UHGV virus genome: UHGV-0046263
DNA length: 36,252 bases
Direction: 5' to 3' (one strand)
Source of the DNA: a virus
In this document: positions 7,054-29,679 of the stretch, piece by piece
Numbering within the stretch: the stretch's first letter is position 1
Layout: each line of letters begins with the position of its first letter
Translations under genes and position numbers: made by a program
Notes under the pieces: model-generated
Seen by the model: only the letters and a program-made list of their open reading frames with translations
The model's database searches: none
What the model was told of the DNA's origin: nothing

Positions 7054-8892
7054 ATGAGCGAGTTTGATGTTTTTTCTATTTCAGTTGATGATTTTAAAAA
7101 AAGTGAATACGCCAGTATATTATCATCGCCAAGAAGTTATTCTCATTTTGATATGGAGTCTTATTTTGTTCAGTTGTTGTCATCTTACAAGCTAAAAAAC
7201 GATGTAAGTTCTTGGCGGCTTTGCTATTTATTACGTGCGTTGTTTAATTTTAAATTTTCTAGGTCTGGTGATATTATCGGTTTTGAGCCAAAAATCATTC
7301 TCTATCCTGAGAGGGGCTATAGGCCTTCAGATTATAAGGAGAGTTTTTCAACAATATTAACTTGTATTAAAGAAAACTCCGATAATCCTTATATTATATC
7401 TAGGGTGTGTGATGTTTTATGGATAAATAACCGTAAGGATATAGACTCTGCCAATAAAGCAATAGAGTCATATTCTCTAATGGTTAATGATGCTTGCGAT
7501 ACTTTAATAGAAAAACAAGAGTCAGGTGATATCCATATTTTTGATGTTGTTGACTGCTTGGATAGAGGTATCGCAATATCGCGCATGCTTATTGGCAGGA
7601 AAAAACAACTACAAGGGGGGATAGTTGATTCGACATTAAGGTTATATCATGTATTAATAGACTCTGGTATATTCACCGGTGTATTAAGAGTTTCTGAAAT
7701 TCTTTATAAGAATAATTTATTGTGTCCCTTGCAATTGGCTGAGAATGCAGAAAAGATAGCTGATGAGCATTGTGGAGCGTCTTATTTTGATGCAGTGAAA
7801 AAATTGTTTTATTTTGCGTCTGAATTATATGTTAAAAACGATATGGAAGAGCAAGGAAGACGGTGCAGAATTAAAGCGTCAGAAATAACATTGGCTCAAT
7901 TTGAACAGTCTTCATCTTCAATATTGAAGGCTCATTGGTTAAGAGTTGCTCTTGGCGAATTTAGAGCAATTGGTGGAATGAATGAAGAAATTAAAAAGAT
8001 TAGAGAGGAATTGAATTCTATTCGAGATCAAATCAATGATGAAATGCACTTCTTTGCAATACCAATGGATCTTAGTGATGTTATCGCTCAGAAAGAGCAT
8101 GTTTATAATCAATTGGATTTCTCAAGGGTAATTAAAACTTTAATTGCTAGATTTAAGATTGTAAGTGCCAGTGAAATTATGGAAAGAGCTCGTTCCGATG
8201 CTAAAAAACATTTTTTTCTTAATATGAGTGAAACGGTTGTTTATGATGATAGAGGGCGCGTTGTAGCAAGTCGTTCACCTTTGGATCCTGCGGGGGATAT
8301 AAGTTTAAATGATGCTTGTGCAAATTATTTAAGAACTAGTAACATTGAGCATCAGGTCTATGTTTGTGGTGAGTTTGAAGTCGTTAGGCAAAGTGTGTTG
8401 GCTAGGTATTCATTAAATGAAAATACATTTGACCCAATCTCACAACAAAGTGCATTTGTTCCACCTGGGTATGCAGAAATATTTTCTTTGGGGTTTTATA
8501 AGCTTTGGCAGGGAGATTATGTGTCTGCCTGTTATTTGTTATTGCCGCAATTGGAGAATTCAATTAGATGGATTTTAGAATTAAGAAGAAAAGAAACAAC
8601 GAAAATAGATGTGTCGCTTTTTGAGGAGGCTACTAGCCTATCTCAAATGCTTGCAAATTATAGGAGTGAAATGGAAGGTGTTTTTGATAGTGATCATGTA
8701 TTGACTATGGATTTATTGTTCAATATGAAAGGTGGTGCTGCAATTAGACACACGATGGCTCATGGCAGGTATACTGTAAATCATTGTTATCAACCAACTT
8801 CAGTTTTTGCCTGTGTCTTTATCTTTTATTTAACTTGTTTGCCTTTATTTAGTGTATGGGAAGATAAAGTTGAACCTTATCTGGCTGATTAA
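7054..8892 (+). CDS. AT-rich cargo protein, 612 aa, unknown function; possible C-terminal HEPN-like domain (candidate abortive-infection/defence effector)
   Basis: Strong ribosome-binding site AAGGTGAGG 4 nt upstream of the ATG; long uninterrupted ORF; AT-rich relative to the phage backbone; sits where tin/old lie in P2; C-terminal LENSIRWIL...AAIRHTMAHG contains an Rx4H motif. Confidence 0.7.
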   Translation: MSEFDVFSISVDDFKKSEYASILSSPRSYSHFDMESYFVQLLSSYKLKNDVSSWRLCYLLRALFNFKFSRSGDIIGFEPKIILYPERGYRPSDYKESFSTILTCIKENSDNPYIISRVCDVLWINNRKDIDSANKAIESYSLMVNDACDTLIEKQESGDIHIFDVVDCLDRGIAISRMLIGRKKQLQGGIVDSTLRLYHVLIDSGIFTGVLRVSEILYKNNLLCPLQLAENAEKIADEHCGASYFDAVKKLFYFASELYVKNDMEEQGRRCRIKASEITLAQFEQSSSSILKAHWLRVALGEFRAIGGMNEEIKKIREELNSIRDQINDEMHFFAIPMDLSDVIAQKEHVYNQLDFSRVIKTLIARFKIVSASEIMERARSDAKKHFFLNMSETVVYDDRGRVVASRSPLDPAGDISLNDACANYLRTSNIEHQVYVCGEFEVVRQSVLARYSLNENTFDPISQQSAFVPPGYAEIFSLGFYKLWQGDYVSACYLLLPQLENSIRWILELRRKETTKIDVSLFEEATSLSQMLANYRSEMEGVFDSDHVLTMDLLFNMKGGAAIRHTMAHGRYTVNHCYQPTSVFACVFIFYLTCLPLFSVWEDKVEPYLAD

Positions 8893-9146: not shown

Positions 9147-9395
9147 GCACCAGCGATTCGCTTGGTATGCGGCAGTCAACAACATTAAATTGTCAGTTTT
9201 TGCTTTTACAAAAAAGCGTCCACTATGGACCTATCAGCGAGGCCCCACCGTCGTCAACTACGATGGTGCCGTAGCCGACGACATTACGTACGGTCGAAAG
9301 ATAGCAGAGGCTGTTGCTGACAATTGTTGATGTAAGCATCTCTGCTGTTCCACCCTTGAGTATGGGAAGACCGTACGTAACTTTGAATTTGAATG
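9147..9395 (+). ncRNA. Candidate structured ncRNA upstream of the RT (possible retron msr/msd)
   Basis: About 250 nt non-coding between the promoter candidate and the RT start, with hairpin GCTTTT-ACAA-AAAAGC (9202..9217), a 13-bp imperfect stem (9250..9262 / 9270..9282) and a perfect 12-bp inverted repeat TTACGTACGGTC / GACCGTACGTAA (9284..9295 / 9369..9380) ending 17 nt before the RT ATG. Boundaries are not defined. Confidence 0.3.
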
Positions 9396-9397
9396 GT

Positions 9398-10588
9398 ATG
9401 TTTATGGATAAATTTAAACCATACAGCAAATCCAATGCTCCTATCACAACACTTGAAAAGTTGTCAAAGGCTTTATCGATTTCTGTTGAAGAGCTTAAAG
9501 CTATTGCAGAATTATCATTAGATGAGAAATATACTCTAAAAGAAATTCCCAAAATTGACGGAAGCAAACGGATTGTCTACTCCCTACATCCTAAAATGAG
9601 ATTATTACAGAGTAGAATTAATAAACGTATTTTTAAGGAATTGGTTGTTTTTCCTTCATTTTTGTTTGGTTCAGTTCCCAGTAAAAATGATGTTTTAAAT
9701 TCTAATGTCAAACGTGACTATGTTTCATGTGCAAAGGCTCATTGTGGAGCAAAAACAGTTCTCAAGGTGGATATAAGTAATTTTTTCGATAATATCCATA
9801 GAGATCTGGTTAGGAGCGTGTTTGAGGAGATATTGCATATTAAGGATGAGGCTCTTGAATACTTGGTGGATATATGTACTAAGGATGATTTTGTCGTACA
9901 GGGGGCCTTAACATCAAGCTATATAGCAACTTTGTGTTTATTCGCTGTTGAAGGGGATGTGGTAAGACGTGCGCAGAGGAAAGGACTTGTTTATACGCGT
10001 TTGGTAGATGATATTACCGTGTCATCTAAAATAAGTAATTATGATTTTTCTCAAATGCAAAGCCATATAGAGAGGATGCTTTCTGAGCATGACTTGCCGA
10101 TAAATAAGCACAAAACAAAAATATTTCACTGTTCATCTGAACCTATAAAAGTACATGGTTTAAGAGTTGACTATGACTCACCTCGACTACCATCCGATGA
10201 AGTCAAAAGAATCAGGGCATCTATACATAATTTGAAATTACTGGCGGCAAAAAATAACACAAAAACAAGTGTTGCATACAGAAAAGAATTCAATAGATGT
10301 ATGGGGAGAGTGAATAAGCTTGGCCGTGTTGGGCATGAAAAATATGAATCATTCAAGAAACAGTTGCAGGCAATAAAACCGATGCCATCTAAAAGAGATG
10401 TTGCTGTGATTGATGCAGCTATAAAAAGTTTAGAGTTGTCGTATTCGAAAGGTAATCAAAATAAACATTGGTATAAAAGAAAATATGATTTGACGAGATA
10501 TAAGATGATTATTCTTACTCGCTCTGAATCATTTAAAGAAAAACTGGAGTGTTTTAAATCTAGATTGGCATCTTTAAAACCATTATGA
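9398..10588 (+). CDS. Retron-type reverse transcriptase (about 396 aa from the ATG at 9398)
   Basis: RT motifs in canonical order: LSKALSISVEEL, GSKRIVYSLHPKMRLLQ, CAKAH (NAxxH-like), LKVDISNFFDNI, QGALTSSYIATL, YTRLVDDITVS (YADD box reads LVDD), INKHKTKI, VHGL (VTG-like). Start uncertain (TTG 9314, ATG 9362, 9398 or 9404). Confidence 0.85.
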   Translation: MFMDKFKPYSKSNAPITTLEKLSKALSISVEELKAIAELSLDEKYTLKEIPKIDGSKRIVYSLHPKMRLLQSRINKRIFKELVVFPSFLFGSVPSKNDVLNSNVKRDYVSCAKAHCGAKTVLKVDISNFFDNIHRDLVRSVFEEILHIKDEALEYLVDICTKDDFVVQGALTSSYIATLCLFAVEGDVVRRAQRKGLVYTRLVDDITVSSKISNYDFSQMQSHIERMLSEHDLPINKHKTKIFHCSSEPIKVHGLRVDYDSPRLPSDEVKRIRASIHNLKLLAAKNNTKTSVAYRKEFNRCMGRVNKLGRVGHEKYESFKKQLQAIKPMPSKRDVAVIDAAIKSLELSYSKGNQNKHWYKRKYDLTRYKMIILTRSESFKEKLECFKSRLASLKPL

Positions 10589-11292
10589 ATGCAAATATTA
10601 GACTTCTCAAATATATTGTCGGTGTGTCGTCAGCTCTTTTTTTGATTTTTTCGCTAATTTCTCTTTTTGAAACTATTCAGAATGAAAAGCTATATGAGCG
10701 TGATATATGCTTCGATAGCCAGTGCTTAAAATTTTTTGCGGAAAAAACATCTGGTATAGTAATGTATTTTCAGGCGTTTGGATGGCTTATAACAACTTTT
10801 GTTACCGTTTTTGGTGTTATGATTGCTTTGATGACATATAACGCTGGAGTTAAAAATAATAATAATAGTAATTACACTAGTCATCTGACGATGTTTAGAG
10901 AATTTGCAAGTGCTGAGTTAACTAAAAGAAGTAGCATCTATCCAGAGAAAGTTAATTTTTTTAGATGGTATAGGGTTATGTTCCCTGAAGCGCAAGGCGG
11001 TGATATATCTGTTTCGAGAGATTATCTAGAAATAATATCTAGAATCAAATGTGTTATTGAGGAAGCCAATGCACATATTACAGAGGAAAATAAAGACTAT
11101 AAATATAAAACTCATCAGAGAAAAATGATGGCTGTTTTGGATGAAATCGGTATATCGATTAGTAATGGGCCCAAAAATATTTTTATTGAGGTTGAGAGTC
11201 AAATTTTGGATTATATCGATACTATTAATTTGTCATTTTGTCACTCCTCATCAGTGATAGAATTAAGTAGAGTAAAAAGGAAGTATATATAG
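10585..11292 (+). CDS. Two-transmembrane-helix protein, 235 aa, translationally coupled to the RT (candidate effector)
   Basis: ATGA start/stop overlap with the RT; hydrophobic segments IVGVSSALFLIFSLISLF and FQAFGWLITTFVTVFGVMIALMTY; AT-rich. Confidence 0.75.
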   Translation: MNANIRLLKYIVGVSSALFLIFSLISLFETIQNEKLYERDICFDSQCLKFFAEKTSGIVMYFQAFGWLITTFVTVFGVMIALMTYNAGVKNNNNSNYTSHLTMFREFASAELTKRSSIYPEKVNFFRWYRVMFPEAQGGDISVSRDYLEIISRIKCVIEEANAHITEENKDYKYKTHQRKMMAVLDEIGISISNGPKNIFIEVESQILDYIDTINLSFCHSSSVIELSRVKRKYI

Positions 11293-20571: not shown

Positions 20572-21357
20572 TTATGAGTGATTTTTATTTGATGCTTTGT
20601 ATTCTAAAACCTTCTTATTGGCGTAAAAGAATTTTGTATATGACAGGAATATAACCAGACCTGAAGTGAAATAGACGAGGGATAGTATTAATAATGCTTT
20701 TTTGTGACTGTTATTATCTTTAATCTCCTGGCTTAACCATTCGGAGTCCTCCTCGTTTAGCTGTAAGAGCTTATTGCAGGCGATCTCAGGAAGTGTGTCT
20801 TTTATAAATACGTTTTGCAGTCTCTTGCAATCGGCAAGGCTATAAGTTTTATTAAATTCAACTGCTTTATTTTTGAAGGATAAAAGAACTTTGTCACTAT
20901 AAACATAGTACATCATGTTTTTATATGGTATGCCTATGGCATCCCTTACTATAACGGATTGTTCGTTGTGTATGTAACATGCGAGGAGAATGTAAAAAAT
21001 ACTGGCCAGAATTACAATTATTGTTTTAATTATGTGTGGTGGTTTTGTTATGTCACCCCAGATGCGAGTAAGGAAAAAATACGATGTTTTTAGTTTTCCA
21101 TCAATCAGTCCCTGCTGTATCATTCTCACATTTTCAATGCCTGATACATTGATTCCATTAATTATTTTAAATAGTTGAATGTCGCGCCACTCGCGGTCAA
21201 GTCTTTTTAATTTTTTGTCTGAATATCCAAAATTGAAATAATGTGCAATAAGCCTCATAAGGTTACTTTTACCAAAGCTAAAAAATGCTAATACTGCAAA
21301 GCTACAAAGGAAAAAAACGATTAGCCCCCACACATTAGTCACATTATAGCTGACCAT
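20572..21357 (-). CDS. AT-rich moron: 261-aa integral membrane protein of unknown function (P2 orf30 position)
   Basis: Opposite strand to the late genes; strong AAGGAG ribosome-binding site; hydrophobic segments at the N-terminus, middle and C-terminus; AT-rich. Confidence 0.7.
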   Translation of the reverse strand: MVSYNVTNVWGLIVFFLCSFAVLAFFSFGKSNLMRLIAHYFNFGYSDKKLKRLDREWRDIQLFKIINGINVSGIENVRMIQQGLIDGKLKTSYFFLTRIWGDITKPPHIIKTIIVILASIFYILLACYIHNEQSVIVRDAIGIPYKNMMYYVYSDKVLLSFKNKAVEFNKTYSLADCKRLQNVFIKDTLPEIACNKLLQLNEEDSEWLSQEIKDNNSHKKALLILSLVYFTSGLVIFLSYTKFFYANKKVLEYKASNKNHS

Positions 21358-21440: not shown

Positions 21441-22082
21441 ATGAACACTCTCGCAAATATTCAGGAACTCGCGCGCGCACTGCGCAACATGATTCGCACC
21501 GGCATTATCGTCGAAACCGACCTTAACGCCGGTCGCTGCCGTGTGCAGACCGGCGGCATGTGCACTGACTGGCTTCAGTGGCTGACCCATCGTGCCGGTC
21601 GTTCGCGCACATGGTGGGCACCTTCCGTGGGGGAGCAGGTGCTGATTCTGGCCGTGGGCGGTGAACTCGACACGGCGTTCGTTCTGCCGGGGATTTATTC
21701 CGGCGATAACCCCGCGCCGTCTGCGTCGGCGGATGCCCTGCATATCCGTTTCCCTGACGGGGCGGTGATTGAATATGAACCCGAAACCAGTGCACTCACG
21801 GTAAGCGGAATTAAAACAGCCAGCGTGACGGCTTCTGATTCTGTTACTGCCACGGTGCCGGTGGTCATGGTGAAAGCATCAACCCGCGTCACCCTGGACA
21901 CACCGGAGGTGGTCTGCACCAACAGGCTGATTACCGGCACGCTGGAAGTGCAGAAGGGCGGGAAGATGCACGGCAACATCGAGCATACCGACGGGAAATT
22001 CACTTCTAACGGCGTTCAGGTGGATGACCACGGTCACGGTGGTGTTAAGTCAGGTGACAACTGGACGCAGGGGACAAAATGA
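21441..22082 (+). CDS. V: Baseplate spike protein V
   Basis: 213 aa from MNTLANIQELARAL; P2 gpV position. Confidence 0.85.
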   Translation: MNTLANIQELARALRNMIRTGIIVETDLNAGRCRVQTGGMCTDWLQWLTHRAGRSRTWWAPSVGEQVLILAVGGELDTAFVLPGIYSGDNPAPSASADALHIRFPDGAVIEYEPETSALTVSGIKTASVTASDSVTATVPVVMVKASTRVTLDTPEVVCTNRLITGTLEVQKGGKMHGNIEHTDGKFTSNGVQVDDHGHGGVKSGDNWTQGTK

Positions 22083-22426
22083 CAGCGCGTTATCTCGGAA
22101 TGAATCGCAGTGATGGCCTGACTGTCACTGACCTTGAGCATATCAGCCAGAGTATCGGCGATATCCTGCGCACGCCGGTCGGCTCACGGGTGATGCGTCG
22201 TGATTACGGCTCGTTGCTGGCGTCAATGATTGACCAGCCGCAGACCCCGGCGCTTGAGTTGCAGATTAAGGTCGCCTGTTACATGGCGGTGCTGAAATGG
22301 GAACCCCGCGTCACCCTGTCATCCGTTACCACGGCGCGCAGCTTTGACGGGCGAATGACGGTCACGTTAACCGGCCAGCACAACGACACCGGCCAGCCAC
22401 TTTCATTAACCATCCCTGTGAGTTGA
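22079..22426 (+). CDS. W: Baseplate protein W
   Basis: 115 aa, as P2 gpW. Confidence 0.85.
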   Translation: MTARYLGMNRSDGLTVTDLEHISQSIGDILRTPVGSRVMRRDYGSLLASMIDQPQTPALELQIKVACYMAVLKWEPRVTLSSVTTARSFDGRMTVTLTGQHNDTGQPLSLTIPVS

Positions 22427-26449: not shown

Positions 26450-26712
26450 GTTGTATGATCTCTGGTGTGAGCTTACATATCTATAGCACAGAGTAAAGCC
26501 TAATCTGACAGTCCGCTATGTGCCAAGAGCGGACATTCCTGACCAAGTTATGTTAATCTGCCTGTAGAAAGCCTTGGTTAACTGCTCTACGTTTTTCCTA
26601 CTTGCTTCTAACGCTTAAATATTCGGAAAGCAAAAAACATGTAACATGAGGCTTGGTAAACAACCCACTCGGTTCATCATTAGATAAAATTAACAGCAAT
26701 ATAGGTGAGCAA

Positions 26713-27714
26713 ATGTTTGAAGAGCATAATGAAGATAAAACAGTTCAGGACAGCGTAAGAAAAATGTTTTTAGCCTCTATTCCAGAGCGTCAGAATGAAC
26801 TGGATGAGTTCTGGTCTAAATTTAACATGACCTTCCAAAATCATAGCGATAATCATACAGACGGTAAATTTATTTTTGATGCGGGGATGTATCGATTTAT
26901 CCGCTTCAATCATCGTGTTTTGCGCACGTTCTGGATAGGAACATTTGCTGCAATGGCGGGCTACGAAGCAATAAACACTGAGCAAAATAAAAAAATTGAA
27001 GACATTATCGATAAAAGGGATTCTATTTTAGATCTTTTTGACTCAAAGAAAATATCATTAGTCTCAACCGAGTCAGAATTACATGTTTTACTCGAGGAGC
27101 TACAGGAAGAACTTGCTGATTTCAGTTCGGCAGACTTCGTAAACTTTGAACAGTTAATCTGCGCTTTTGAAAACACGGCTAAAGATGAGGTACCGGATGA
27201 AAAACCACTACCAATAGGAATTCCTGAACCTGGCACCATGCCTGACAGTAAAATCGAACCAGTTAAAAGAGCAACAGCTGAATTAGCAATTATTGCTGCT
27301 GCTTGGGCATTTTTGCATGAAGTCCGACATATCATTCATCAGCAGGAAGGTACCAGTTATGATATGAATGAATTCACACAAGAACAAGCTCATAATGAAG
27401 AGTTCTCATGTGATGAGTTTGCAACTAAATTCATCCTTGACCATATAGATAATTACTGTGAAGAGTCTATGTATGACCGTGTGTTGGTGAGCAGGAAAAG
27501 AAGACTTTCTATATACTGTGCATTATTCAGCGTTACTATGTTAGGTAAAAACAACTGGGGTTTTTCAAAATCTCACCCTTCACTTCAGGATAGAATAAAT
27601 AAAGTAAAAGCATTAATGAAAGAGCCTGATGATGAGGTTCTCGAATATATTGTGGAGACTATGTTTAAGTCTATTGCTAGAATCTGGCCAACCGTTCCTA
27701 CTGTCAAATTCTGA
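26713..27714 (+). CDS. AT-rich cargo protein, 333 aa, with an HExxH zinc-metallopeptidase-like motif (Z/fun position)
   Basis: AGGTGAG ribosome-binding site upstream of the ATG at 26713; HEVRH within AWAFLHEVRHIIHQQE; acidic helical N-terminal half; followed by an intrinsic terminator. Confidence 0.7.
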   Translation: MFEEHNEDKTVQDSVRKMFLASIPERQNELDEFWSKFNMTFQNHSDNHTDGKFIFDAGMYRFIRFNHRVLRTFWIGTFAAMAGYEAINTEQNKKIEDIIDKRDSILDLFDSKKISLVSTESELHVLLEELQEELADFSSADFVNFEQLICAFENTAKDEVPDEKPLPIGIPEPGTMPDSKIEPVKRATAELAIIAAAWAFLHEVRHIIHQQEGTSYDMNEFTQEQAHNEEFSCDEFATKFILDHIDNYCEESMYDRVLVSRKRRLSIYCALFSVTMLGKNNWGFSKSHPSLQDRINKVKALMKEPDDEVLEYIVETMFKSIARIWPTVPTVKF

Positions 27715-27743
27715 CGTAGGGTTTTCGCGCTTTAAAAAGTTTA

Positions 27744-27769
27744 AAGTGATGTCTGCGCATCACTTTTTA
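27744..27769 (+). terminator. Rho-independent terminator downstream of the HExxH gene
   Basis: Stem AAGTGATG / CATCACTT with a 6-nt loop followed by TTTTT. Confidence 0.6.
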
Positions 27770-28237
27770 GAATATGAAATTAAGTTCTCCGGCCCTGTTC
27801 TATGAAACATATTCTTAATAAATAAGTGATGTTTACTAACAAAGCTCGTGATGTTGAAACTCACTTCCCGTAAAACAGATGTGCTATTGGGCAGAGTGAG
27901 ATATCGTCCGATCATTAACTGAACTTGACCAACTCAACGTTGAACAATGCACCTTGCTACAAGTTATAAACAACTTTTGGGTGATGACAATTGCGAACTT
28001 CTGATTATCGCTCGAAGCTGTCTCTCGATGTCTACTGTGTGCCAGGAGCGGACGTAACGAATAATTTTTTGTGTGGAGCAATGGGGAGCAGGCCACTAGC
28101 CCAAATGGCCTTGCTGAAGAAACATGAACCTGGCTACAGCGTATGAGCATTACAATGAAATCCTCCGCACAGGGCCCTAGGATACCACTCACGGAGTAAA
28201 TACCGGAGCCAAATATAGCGGTTCAAGAACTTCAATT

Positions 28238-29344
28238 TTATTCATCGTATTTAGGTGAGAAAACACTTATTTCTTTGGACCAGATGCCGAAACCTTCAAT
28301 ATCAAGGGTGAACTCAATAGGTAATTTGCTATCTTTATATTCAGTTGGTATCACCCGAATATTTTTGACATTTTTTACACAATGTAATGGAGTGTATTTG
28401 TTTTTTGTGATTGAATCAAAAATTGGTATACAAGATAAGCGTATAACTTCTAATTTAACTAATTTGTCTAGCCACATTGTTCCTTCAAAGTCATGGAAGA
28501 ACTGTCTTATTCTGGAACCCAATGTTGGATGGGAATAAATCTCACCTCTAATGGTGGAAAGGGAAGTATATATTTTTTGTGGTAAAGCTTCAAACCCCGA
28601 TATCGTAGCTATATCACCAGAACTATTTACAAATAAATCGCCTGTCGTGAAAATATCTAAATCCATTGGGAGGCTATTGCAATTGATGCGCGGAGTGTCT
28701 ATTTCAACAGGGACGATTACTTCATAGCTATCTGGTAATTTATTTAATTTTATTGGTGCTGATAACAAACGCCCCTCACCAAGTTGATTAACTAGAATAA
28801 ATTTTTCTTCGGTAGGGATGGAGTGGAATCTTTCGTTGAAAGATATTAACTTAGATAAATCGCCAGTAAAGAAGTTTGCAAATTTTATAGTCCACTCATT
28901 GGTTGAGATTCCGGTAAGCTCTCCGAAAACGATAATGTCTATACCTATTGCAATGAAATCATTATGTTTGGTTGATGAAGAACCATTGCTCACCTCTTTT
29001 TTAATCTCTTCTTCGTGGGCTTTCTTCATTTCTTTAAGAATTTCTGCTGTATATCTAATTTCATCTCTATCAATTTCAACGCTGTGATTAACACACATCC
29101 AGATGCCATTATTTATATCTTTCCTTTCATCTGGTGTTTGATTAGGATCATATCGTCTTGCTAATGGCCCAGGAGCTGCGGCATGAATGTGCGCAGCTAC
29201 CCCAATATTTGTGATAGATGTTAAGGATTCATCACTGGGGCCAACTGTAAGCTGATTACAACCGGGGAATGAGCACCTATAACCAGCCCGTAGTGCTAGA
29301 GCTCTTACAGTTTTTGAGCTGAAATCATCGCGTGTTTTAGACAT
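28238..29344 (-). CDS. AT-rich cargo protein, about 368 aa, with an N-terminal HNH nuclease domain and a C-terminal domain of unknown function
   Basis: CxxC (CSFPGC) ... AAHIHAA ... NGIWMCVNHS arrangement typical of HNH; start taken at the ATG at 29344 (MSKTR); the ORF could extend to a TTG at 29380. Confidence 0.7.
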   Translation of the reverse strand: MSKTRDDFSSKTVRALALRAGYRCSFPGCNQLTVGPSDESLTSITNIGVAAHIHAAAPGPLARRYDPNQTPDERKDINNGIWMCVNHSVEIDRDEIRYTAEILKEMKKAHEEEIKKEVSNGSSSTKHNDFIAIGIDIIVFGELTGISTNEWTIKFANFFTGDLSKLISFNERFHSIPTEEKFILVNQLGEGRLLSAPIKLNKLPDSYEVIVPVEIDTPRINCNSLPMDLDIFTTGDLFVNSSGDIATISGFEALPQKIYTSLSTIRGEIYSHPTLGSRIRQFFHDFEGTMWLDKLVKLEVIRLSCIPIFDSITKNKYTPLHCVKNVKNIRVIPTEYKDSKLPIEFTLDIEGFGIWSKEISVFSPKYDE

Positions 29345-29679
29345 GTTTAAAGCCTTTAAAAATAAAAAGACACCTAACAATATAATTATGCTTACCTTTC
29401 AGCAGCATCTTACAACGGTAAACCCATGTTCCTTTATATACTGCATATTAGCAGTTAAAAATGAACCTGAACAAGAGGAAGTTAGATGAAAGTGGACAAG
29501 AGTTACATCAAATCGGGGTTGTATTAGCAATACGCCAAGAATCACTATTTCATATAGATCATGTTAGATACTAAACCGCCCCTTAACTTCCGCTCCTCGC
29601 TCAAAGCAGACTGTCAGATTTGATAGCGTTTTGGCTATGTAAATTGTCAGTCGGGAAATAAGTGAGTACAAATCATGAC

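Follow-up and report, generated by a model that had tools for sequence, protein, structure and literature searches.

The locus described here raises the question of what a gene with HNH nuclease motifs contributes to the prophage that carries it. The gene is located on the minus strand at positions 28238–29344 of UHGV virus genome UHGV-0046263, a 36,252-nt stretch of viral DNA, referred to below as the window, that is a P2-like prophage of Escherichia coli. An original prediction, made from the sequence alone, offered three options for the gene, namely an independent nuclease defence gene, a homing-endonuclease-like element, or a partner of the convergent HExxH peptidase gene, here assigned to the Lit family. 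Our analyses favour the first option and speak against the other two. The C-terminal ~260 residues, which the prediction had left unassigned, were resolved by domain searches and modelling into two domains with the folds of a tail tube protein and of the gp25 sheath initiator.

The HNH gene and its nuclease head

All three motifs on which the nuclease had been recognised (CSFPGC, AAHIHAA and NGIWMCVNHS) were found in the translation, and the gene is AT-rich as predicted, with a GC content of 0.37–0.38 over 26500–29500 as opposed to 0.55–0.57 in the tail genes on either side. The distance of 523 bp separating the convergent genes was also verified, as the plus-strand HExxH gene ends at 27714 and the stop codon of the minus-strand HNH gene begins at 28238. 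The HNH open reading frame (ORF) extends over 28238–29380 if read from a TTG codon and over 28238–29344 (368 residues) if read from an ATG, the latter being the start in both GenBank AJ512680 and RefSeq WP_225403053.1, with an AAAGG Shine-Dalgarno sequence ~8 nt upstream. That the gene is real is indicated by its full-length protein family (276 matches, 38–49% identity), together with a full-length PHROG match (8e-266). The annotated promoter (29443–29471) was not called independently by a simple promoter scan. The features of the gene are as follows:

28238–29344, minus strand: whole coding sequence of the HNH/tube-fold/gp25-fold fusion, 368 residues plus stop codon; corresponds to P2-EC46 Z-region ORF2, WP_225403053.1
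28979–29344, minus strand: predicted Cap5-type HNH nuclease head and connecting helix, residues 1–122; catalytic/metal residues H52, N79 and H87, cysteines C24, C29 and C84
28700–28966, minus strand: middle beta-sandwich domain, modelled with a tail-tube/Hcp-like fold, residues 127–215
28241–28672, minus strand: domain modelled with a gp25/GpW-like "sheath initiator" fold, residues 225–368
29353–29471, minus strand: upstream signals from the AJ512680 annotation mapped to the window, with the −35 at 29466–29471, the −10 at 29443–29448 and the ribosome-binding site at 29353–29356

Residues 1–130 matched the PADLOC models for PDC-M68A (9.6e-24), the CBASS "Effector endonuclease" (2e-20), SAVED_HNH (5e-18) and HNH-headed SduA (2e-16), and comparison of the family profile with solved structures identified the HNH endonuclease 9om4 (1e-15) and the Cap5/SAVED-domain proteins 8ysq, 7rwk and 7rwm. 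The head has a beta-beta-alpha-Me fold, and in 60 homologues residues H52, N79, H87, C29 and C84 were invariant and C24 was at least 90% conserved; the conserved head residues align with the AHI, N and H positions of 9om4 and of the SAVED-domain protein 8ysq. These matches identify the head as a predicted DNA endonuclease of the CBASS Cap5-type, immune-effector class, and the nuclease is expected to be active because its catalytic and metal residues are intact as well as invariant. The 435-residue protein 9om4, which had the best sequence match to the head of any solved structure (1.2e-15), is described in its entry only as "HNH endonuclease" and possibly represents a related immune effector in which the body is again a different one.

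The same head was fused to other bodies in 30 other loci, including NB-ARC/TPR STAND, NACHT, SMC/AAA, HEAT and unassigned bodies, and the CBASS and PDC-M68A effector models matched all 30 of those heads. PDC-M68A and the HNH-headed Shedu (SduA) variants likewise have the head in common with the HNH protein, but match it only over residues 1–130, their bodies (unassigned or DUF4263) being unrelated. The comparison with Cap5, the SAVED-HNH effector of CBASS, is similar in that the HNH protein has neither a SAVED domain nor a CD-NTase operon. The PADLOC and PDB matches stop at about residue 125, beyond which the tube and gp25 folds follow in place of SAVED or any other cyclic-nucleotide-sensing domain; in the window the gene is flanked by P2 tail genes and the Lit-like gene, and no CD-NTase was present in the Pfam-annotated contexts of the homologues. 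Since the regulatory body differs, the activating input must differ from that of Cap5. In one alternative the body is a second-messenger receptor that binds a small nucleotide, its middle beta-barrel functioning as PilZ does or as SAVED does in Cap5, with this ligand and not a phage protein switching the HNH on. The PilZ cyclic di-GMP motifs RxxxR and D/NxSxxG are not in the body sequence, and we regard a nucleotide-receptor role as possible but disfavoured, with a low probability.

Two contractile-tail folds in the C-terminal body

AlphaFold2 modelling with a 60-sequence alignment (pLDDT 88, pTM 0.85) divides the C-terminal region into two confidently modelled domains, an Hcp-like tail-tube domain at residues ~127–215 and a gp25/GpW sheath-initiator domain at residues ~225–368. 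The first is beta-rich, attained a pLDDT of 93 when modelled alone, and has a tube-type beta-sandwich with a flanking helix; a PDB sequence search with it gave no match. The model of the second domain has the gp25 fold, for which the sequence evidence is weak but consistent. Its match to Pfam PF10934 (19.7 bits, E 9e-4) is under the gathering cutoff of 32.9 bits, and the Pfam scan yielded no PF04965 match to the body. PHROG baseplate families were matched at 5.6e-9 and 7.8e-7, and profile matches with the canonical motif aligned were obtained to the baseplate wedge subunit ORF61 of phi812 (5e-5), E217 gp34 and Pa193 gp35. A relaxed tblastn search retrieved 546 phage records, almost all of which are annotated Herelleviridae baseplate proteins.

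Counterparts of both folds are present as separate chains in the same solved baseplates, those of Pam3, Pa193, Bas63, pyocin R2, phi812, XM1, PVC, diffocin and the Streptomyces contractile injection system. As two folds of contractile machines are combined in a single polypeptide, we argue that the modelled body was probably derived from tail genes rather than by convergence. A recent duplication of the prophage's own gpW gene (22079–22426, PF04965) was ruled out as its source, since an hhalign comparison of gpW with the gp25-fold domain gave a probability of only 8% and the two belong to different Pfam families.

The HNH protein differs from the known proteins with these folds. The sheath initiators gp25, GpW, TssE and PA0617 are free baseplate subunits of ~100–140 residues encoded in a tail operon, whereas the corresponding domain of the HNH protein is under the Pfam gathering threshold, fused to a nuclease and distinct from the gpW of the prophage, and its gene is found in cargo sites and non-phage islands. 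Tail tube, Hcp and tube-initiator proteins have no detectable sequence similarity to the HNH protein, in which the tube fold makes up just one small domain of a cytoplasmic enzyme. E. coli IraD, an anti-adaptor that regulates RpoS proteolysis through RssB binding, has a gp25-like fold but no effector domain and no evidence for an immune role.

These comparisons bear on the alternative that the protein is structural or delivered, with its body inserting into the P2 baseplate, a tailocin or a type VI secretion system (T6SS) and the HNH acting as a delivered toxin as in Hcp-toxin fusions. Both folds are genuine folds of contractile injection systems, the gene is situated among the tail genes, between G and FI, and Hcp-nuclease fusion effectors do exist in T6SS. 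A free-standing small subunit of the tail operon is nevertheless not what is encoded, as the gene specifies an HNH fusion, is on the strand opposite to the P2 tail operon, is AT-rich and has its own annotated promoter. In addition, P2 already has its own gpW, and the gene occupies a known variable cargo site at which other P2 prophages have unrelated genes, such as those for an S1 peptidase or hypothetical proteins. Further points against this alternative came from the homologues of the protein.

Distribution of the family and exchange of its modules

Full-length homologues are distributed over Beta-, Gamma- and Alphaproteobacteria and Myxococcota, are mostly outside phages, and for the most part are far from tail or T6SS genes. 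We examined 25 non-redundant loci of full-length homologues, the related-locus search having employed an alignment of 12 sequences, and found no conserved partner gene, as no neighbour family was present at more than three of them. Many of their neighbours are of the kind usually met in defence islands and mobile genetic elements, namely SIR2, type I restriction-modification with a PIN protein and DEAD helicase, an ATPase of the OLD family, integrases, a methylase with Vsr and, at an ICE edge, the border of a Trb conjugation module. These contexts, the immune-effector (CBASS Cap5) type of the HNH and the lack of a conserved partner together agree with the prediction of an independent nuclease defence gene. 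No conserved immunity-like ORF of at least 70 residues was found downstream at the 25 loci, which is a further argument against a delivered toxin.

The same distribution makes it very improbable that the gene is a homing or selfish HNH endonuclease that spreads the island. HNH homing endonucleases are common in phages, and repeats do flank the island, but the HNH belongs to the immune-effector subtype and differs in this from the HNH proteins with which phages home or package DNA. The family is present in chromosomal defence islands across Proteobacteria and Myxococcota and in cargo hotspots, rather than in or beside a conserved target gene, and the island itself is found in just 6 of 5426 complete E. 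coli genomes, in copies that are 99.9–100% identical. Moreover, as described below, the conserved 240-residue body is common to TIR, cyclase and caspase proteins, that is, to effectors that are not nucleases.

A neighbour present at three of the loci was a DUF4238 gene, which adjoins the HNH-body gene in three independent lineages, in varying orientations:

Locus L005, 9938–10870: DUF4238 neighbour, Bradyrhizobium
Locus L009, 9168–10049: DUF4238 neighbour, metagenomic bacterium
Locus L015, 9177–10157: DUF4238 neighbour, Acidisoma

This adjacency is more than expected for random neighbours, and DUF4238 is a validated single-gene defence from the P2 hotspot (Rousset 2022, PMC9122126). As an obligate partner it was rejected on account of the small number of loci and their differing orientations, and the adjacency was treated as co-localisation in defence islands.

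Two other P2-like phages, Yersinia phage vB_YenM_31.17 and a contig from IMG/VR that shares 42% identity with the window in both portal and integrase, have the HNH gene near the integrase and without the Lit-like gene. In the Yersinia phage (locus L002, 2273–4422), the integrase and the cI repressor are separated by an "ATPase" and "hypothetical protein" pair that probably represents a further defence cassette; the ATPase shows weak similarity (1e-4) to the one of the OLD-family/AAA_15 type at locus L014. The family member at L014 (P0006, 8001–9518) has 505 residues, with an extra C-terminal tail of ~140 residues, and its gene is in an operon-like row with type I restriction-modification, PIN protein and DEAD-box helicase genes, with a stop/start overlap with the helicase gene, the OLD-family ATPase gene being nearby. 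Two copies appear to have decayed. In Citrobacter (L033, 5992–7100) the gene is split into ORFs of 104 and 265 residues, and in Providencia (L030, 6192–7100), downstream of a type I HsdR gene, the ORF is without its first ~70 residues, including part of the HNH.

An exhaustive search of 1.84 billion representatives with a profile of the body only (residues 125–368) identified 502 proteins at E ≤ 1e-3, 176 of them at E ≤ 1e-30. The body was complete in 97 of the top 150 representatives, and their N-terminal parts were classified as follows, with the Pfam assignments of the alternative domains given below them:

HNH head: 59 of 97
Other N-terminal domain of at least 80 residues: 27 of 97
Short non-HNH N-terminus: 5 of 97
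No N-terminal part: 6 of 97
TIR/SEFIR: 8
Class III nucleotide cyclase: 3
Calcineurin-like phosphoesterase (Metallophos): 2
Ser/Thr kinase: 2
HTH: 2
GGDEF: 1
Caspase C14: 1
Trypsin + SLOG: 1
PNP/UDP phosphorylase: 1
EAD5: 1

EAD5 is an "effector-associated domain", a type described as recruiting effectors via homotypic interaction in conflict systems (PMC7159879). The head and the body thus each recombine with alternative immune partners, and on these domain assignments both are predicted to be portable immune modules. That one conserved module joins so many immune outputs is the strongest argument that the body represents the input module of an immune protein family. It also weighs against a structural or delivered role, as a body joined to cytoplasmic signalling domains (cyclase, GGDEF, kinase, EAD5 and HTH) would be senseless as injected cargo, and with the evidence above we consider such a role quite unlikely.

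The census is relevant to another alternative, in which the body would act as an assembly poison that co-assembles into an invader's baseplate or caps its tube or sheath, the N-terminal enzyme being secondary. The same fold evidence could be cited for this as for a sensor, and the six stand-alone bodies without an effector are compatible with it. An N-terminal extension of at least 30 residues is, on the other hand, present in 91 of the 97 complete bodies, and in 86 of them this extension is either the HNH head or some other domain 80 or more residues long, mostly identifiable as enzymatic or adaptor domains. In addition, the invariant catalytic residues of the HNH imply that catalysis is under selection. 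An assembly poison is accordingly an alternative to which we assign a small probability.

A proposed sensing mechanism

The interpretation we favour, and to which we give slightly better than even chances, is that the HNH protein is a stand-alone, single-chain anti-phage protein in which a module exapted from baseplates detects a component of contractile tails and, by clustering, turns on the HNH. The defence role is well supported, while for the remainder we infer that the body is the sensor, that a tail or baseplate protein is the ligand and that activation occurs by induced oligomerisation. The HNH head would be the effector, a DNA endonuclease, and the C-terminal 240 residues the input module exapted from contractile-tail baseplate proteins. 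In a lysogen the protein would be expressed from its own promoter and kept inactive. Late gene expression by a foreign contractile-tailed phage would then supply a tail component whose usual docking site is the platform of tube initiator and sheath initiator. This component would bind the mimic, candidate ligands being the sheath, the tube, or wedge proteins of the gp6/gpJ type. Multivalent binding would gather several copies of the HNH protein, and the clustered heads would switch on, in the same way that Cap5 is activated by ligand-induced tetramerisation, and cut DNA, causing the infection to be aborted.

TIR, caspase, class III cyclase, GGDEF and Cap5-type HNH domains are all activated via dimerisation or higher-order assembly, and such partner domains fit a clustering mechanism. 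The resident P2 would escape self-triggering through its own gpW belonging to another gp25 subfamily; this argument is weak.

Potentially, the protein has similarities to the Avs/STAND receptors, in that a conserved late structural protein would be recognised directly, oligomerisation would follow and an N-terminal effector would be activated; the very same HNH head is found on NB-ARC/TPR and NACHT proteins. It differs from those receptors in having no NTPase, in being much smaller, and in a sensor made of copied phage folds as opposed to a TPR/repeat clamp. A late structural protein as trigger, which is the general strategy proposed here, is also a feature of the Lit protein of e14, which responds to the Gol peptide of the T4 major capsid protein, although Lit is unrelated to the HNH protein and the Lit-like gene of the window is genetically independent of the HNH gene. 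A survey of STAND proteins assigned sensors to most core structural proteins, such as Avs16 to the tail tube protein, and the tail sheath and baseplate hub were among the targets without an assigned sensor (bioRxiv 10.64898/2026.01.04.697583).

A broader and more tentative proposal, which we think is plausible but less probable than its converse, is that the tube and gp25 body is a widespread, unrecognised immune sensor, a "decoy tail-initiation platform" on which the sheath, tube or wedge of an invader docks or starts polymerising, with the resulting clustering activating whichever effector is attached. Single-chain immune proteins that combine sensor and effector are known; what is new here is a sensor apparently built from two copied phage baseplate folds, in a family of several hundred representatives with a broad choice of effectors. 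If the proposal is correct, assembly of the tail sheath or baseplate would join the phage processes that are monitored by bacteria, and the body would be the first sensor dedicated to it. It would also mean that viral assembly interfaces can be exapted as receptors, a copied interface having become a pattern-recognition receptor of bacteria and prophages, and would provide a compact, swappable sensor module for engineering.

The sequence of the protein was made public in 2003, and the RefSeq naming already recognises its C-terminal domain. No model in PADLOC v2.0.0 (PADLOC-DB 2023) covers the tube and gp25 body, and the HNH protein had no NCBIfam match. We did not find the fusion, the tube-fold domain, the effector repertoire of the body or a defence phenotype described in the literature, our coverage of which was incomplete, chiefly for subscription journals, and two papers on the P2 hotspots do not mention the HNH-body protein; the family may have been named recently elsewhere. 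Our results re-annotate what in 2003 was a "putative lysogenic conversion protein", and the RefSeq name "DUF2634 / GPW-gp25 family protein" could misleadingly suggest a tail part.

The cargo island and its neighbouring genes

The gene order of the prophage is V (spike), W (gp25-type), J, I, H (tail fibre), G (tail-fibre assembly, Caudo_TAP), the AT-rich island, FI (sheath), FII (tube), E/E' and T (tape measure). Flanked by G and FI in this P2 order, the island occupies the classical P2 "Z/fun" variable cargo site. Its sequence is the same as that of GenBank AJ512680.1, "Bacteriophage P2-EC46 proviral Z-region, ORF1 and ORF2" (2003), a record that labels the product of either ORF a putative lysogenic conversion protein and marks inverted repeats at the flanks. 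In RefSeq, ORF2 is named "DUF2634 domain-containing" or "GPW/gp25 family protein", and ORF1 "phage exclusion protein Lit family protein". A 23-nt element with a hairpin of 7-bp stem (GTCCGCT...AGCGGAC) occurs at exactly three sites in the window, compared with 0.02 expected. These elements and the second cargo gene are located as follows:

26511–26533, plus strand: left boundary element, 23 nt, inside the "left inverted repeat" of AJ512680
26713–27714, plus strand: gene for a Lit-family (peptidase U49, HExxH) phage-exclusion protein, P2-EC46 Z-region ORF1, identified by Pfam, PADLOC, NCBIfam and its RefSeq name
28030–28052, plus strand: middle boundary element, 23 nt, in the 523-bp spacer between the two cargo genes
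29589–29611, minus strand: right boundary element, 23 nt

The HExxH protein matched Pfam Peptidase_U49 at 30.4 bits (cutoff 23.9), PADLOC Lit at 6.7e-11 and NCBIfam Lit at 4.5e-23, the last being far under the equivalog cutoff. Its longest ORF starts from a TTG at 26653 (353 residues), as opposed to the ATG at 26713 (333 residues) in GenBank and RefSeq. A 2026 survey reported a Lit homologue in one single P2-like prophage (PMC13586616).

In a further alternative the two genes are partners, in a two-gene system in which, for instance, the peptidase processes or activates the nuclease. They do adjoin in a single AT-rich island, and the pair is kept at 99.9–100% identity in the six E. coli genomes and in two IMG/VR contigs. 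Those genomes, however, contain near-identical copies of one prophage and do not represent independent events. Co-occurrence, which had been proposed as a check, largely refuted the partnership, as the Lit-like gene was present at just one of the 25 non-redundant loci, that of the P2-EC46-type prophage, with none elsewhere by BLAST or by an iterative hidden Markov model search, and the other P2-like phages have the HNH gene alone. Further, the genes are convergent, AJ512680 gives each of them separate regulatory signals, and the hairpin copy between them indicates separate cassettes. As each gene is enclosed by its own pair of 23-nt elements, the arrangement is consistent with separate acquisition. 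The partnership is therefore essentially excluded, its probability being minimal, and the HExxH gene is a Lit-family peptidase gene, an independent defence gene in a common hotspot.

The 23-nt element itself may mark cassette boundaries in the Z/fun hotspot or serve there as a recombination signal. No Rfam match at E ≤ 1 was found in the island, including the 523-bp spacer. The stop codon of the Lit-like gene is followed 29 nt later, at 27743–27766, by a palindromic hairpin, AAAGTGATG...CATCACTTT, bordered by A/T runs on either side. The hairpin resembles a bidirectional terminator and could stop transcription of the HNH gene as well, in which case the HNH transcript would have a 3' untranslated region of ~470 nt. 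A 102-residue ORF at 27884–28192, on the same strand as the HNH gene and 46 nt downstream of it, was considered as an immunity gene and treated as spurious, since neither GenBank nor RefSeq annotates it, it overlaps with the hairpin repeat, and other family members have no homologue of it beside them.

Additional cargo was evident elsewhere in the window. The second P2 hotspot, between the replication genes and portal gene Q, has a 612-residue AT-rich cargo gene (7054–8892, plus strand) that matches the PADLOC candidate PDC-S39 (2e-68) and Pfam DUF7380. At 9314–11292 (plus strand) is a type IV retron, in which the reverse transcriptase (PADLOC RT_IV, 1e-176) is followed with a 4-nt overlap by a 2TM effector (4e-85). 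Lastly, a 261-residue AT-rich ORF (20572–21357, minus strand; local GC ~0.36), for which the Pfam and PADLOC scans gave no match, is situated on the opposite strand between tail-completion gene S and spike gene V, and may represent a third cargo site of the prophage.

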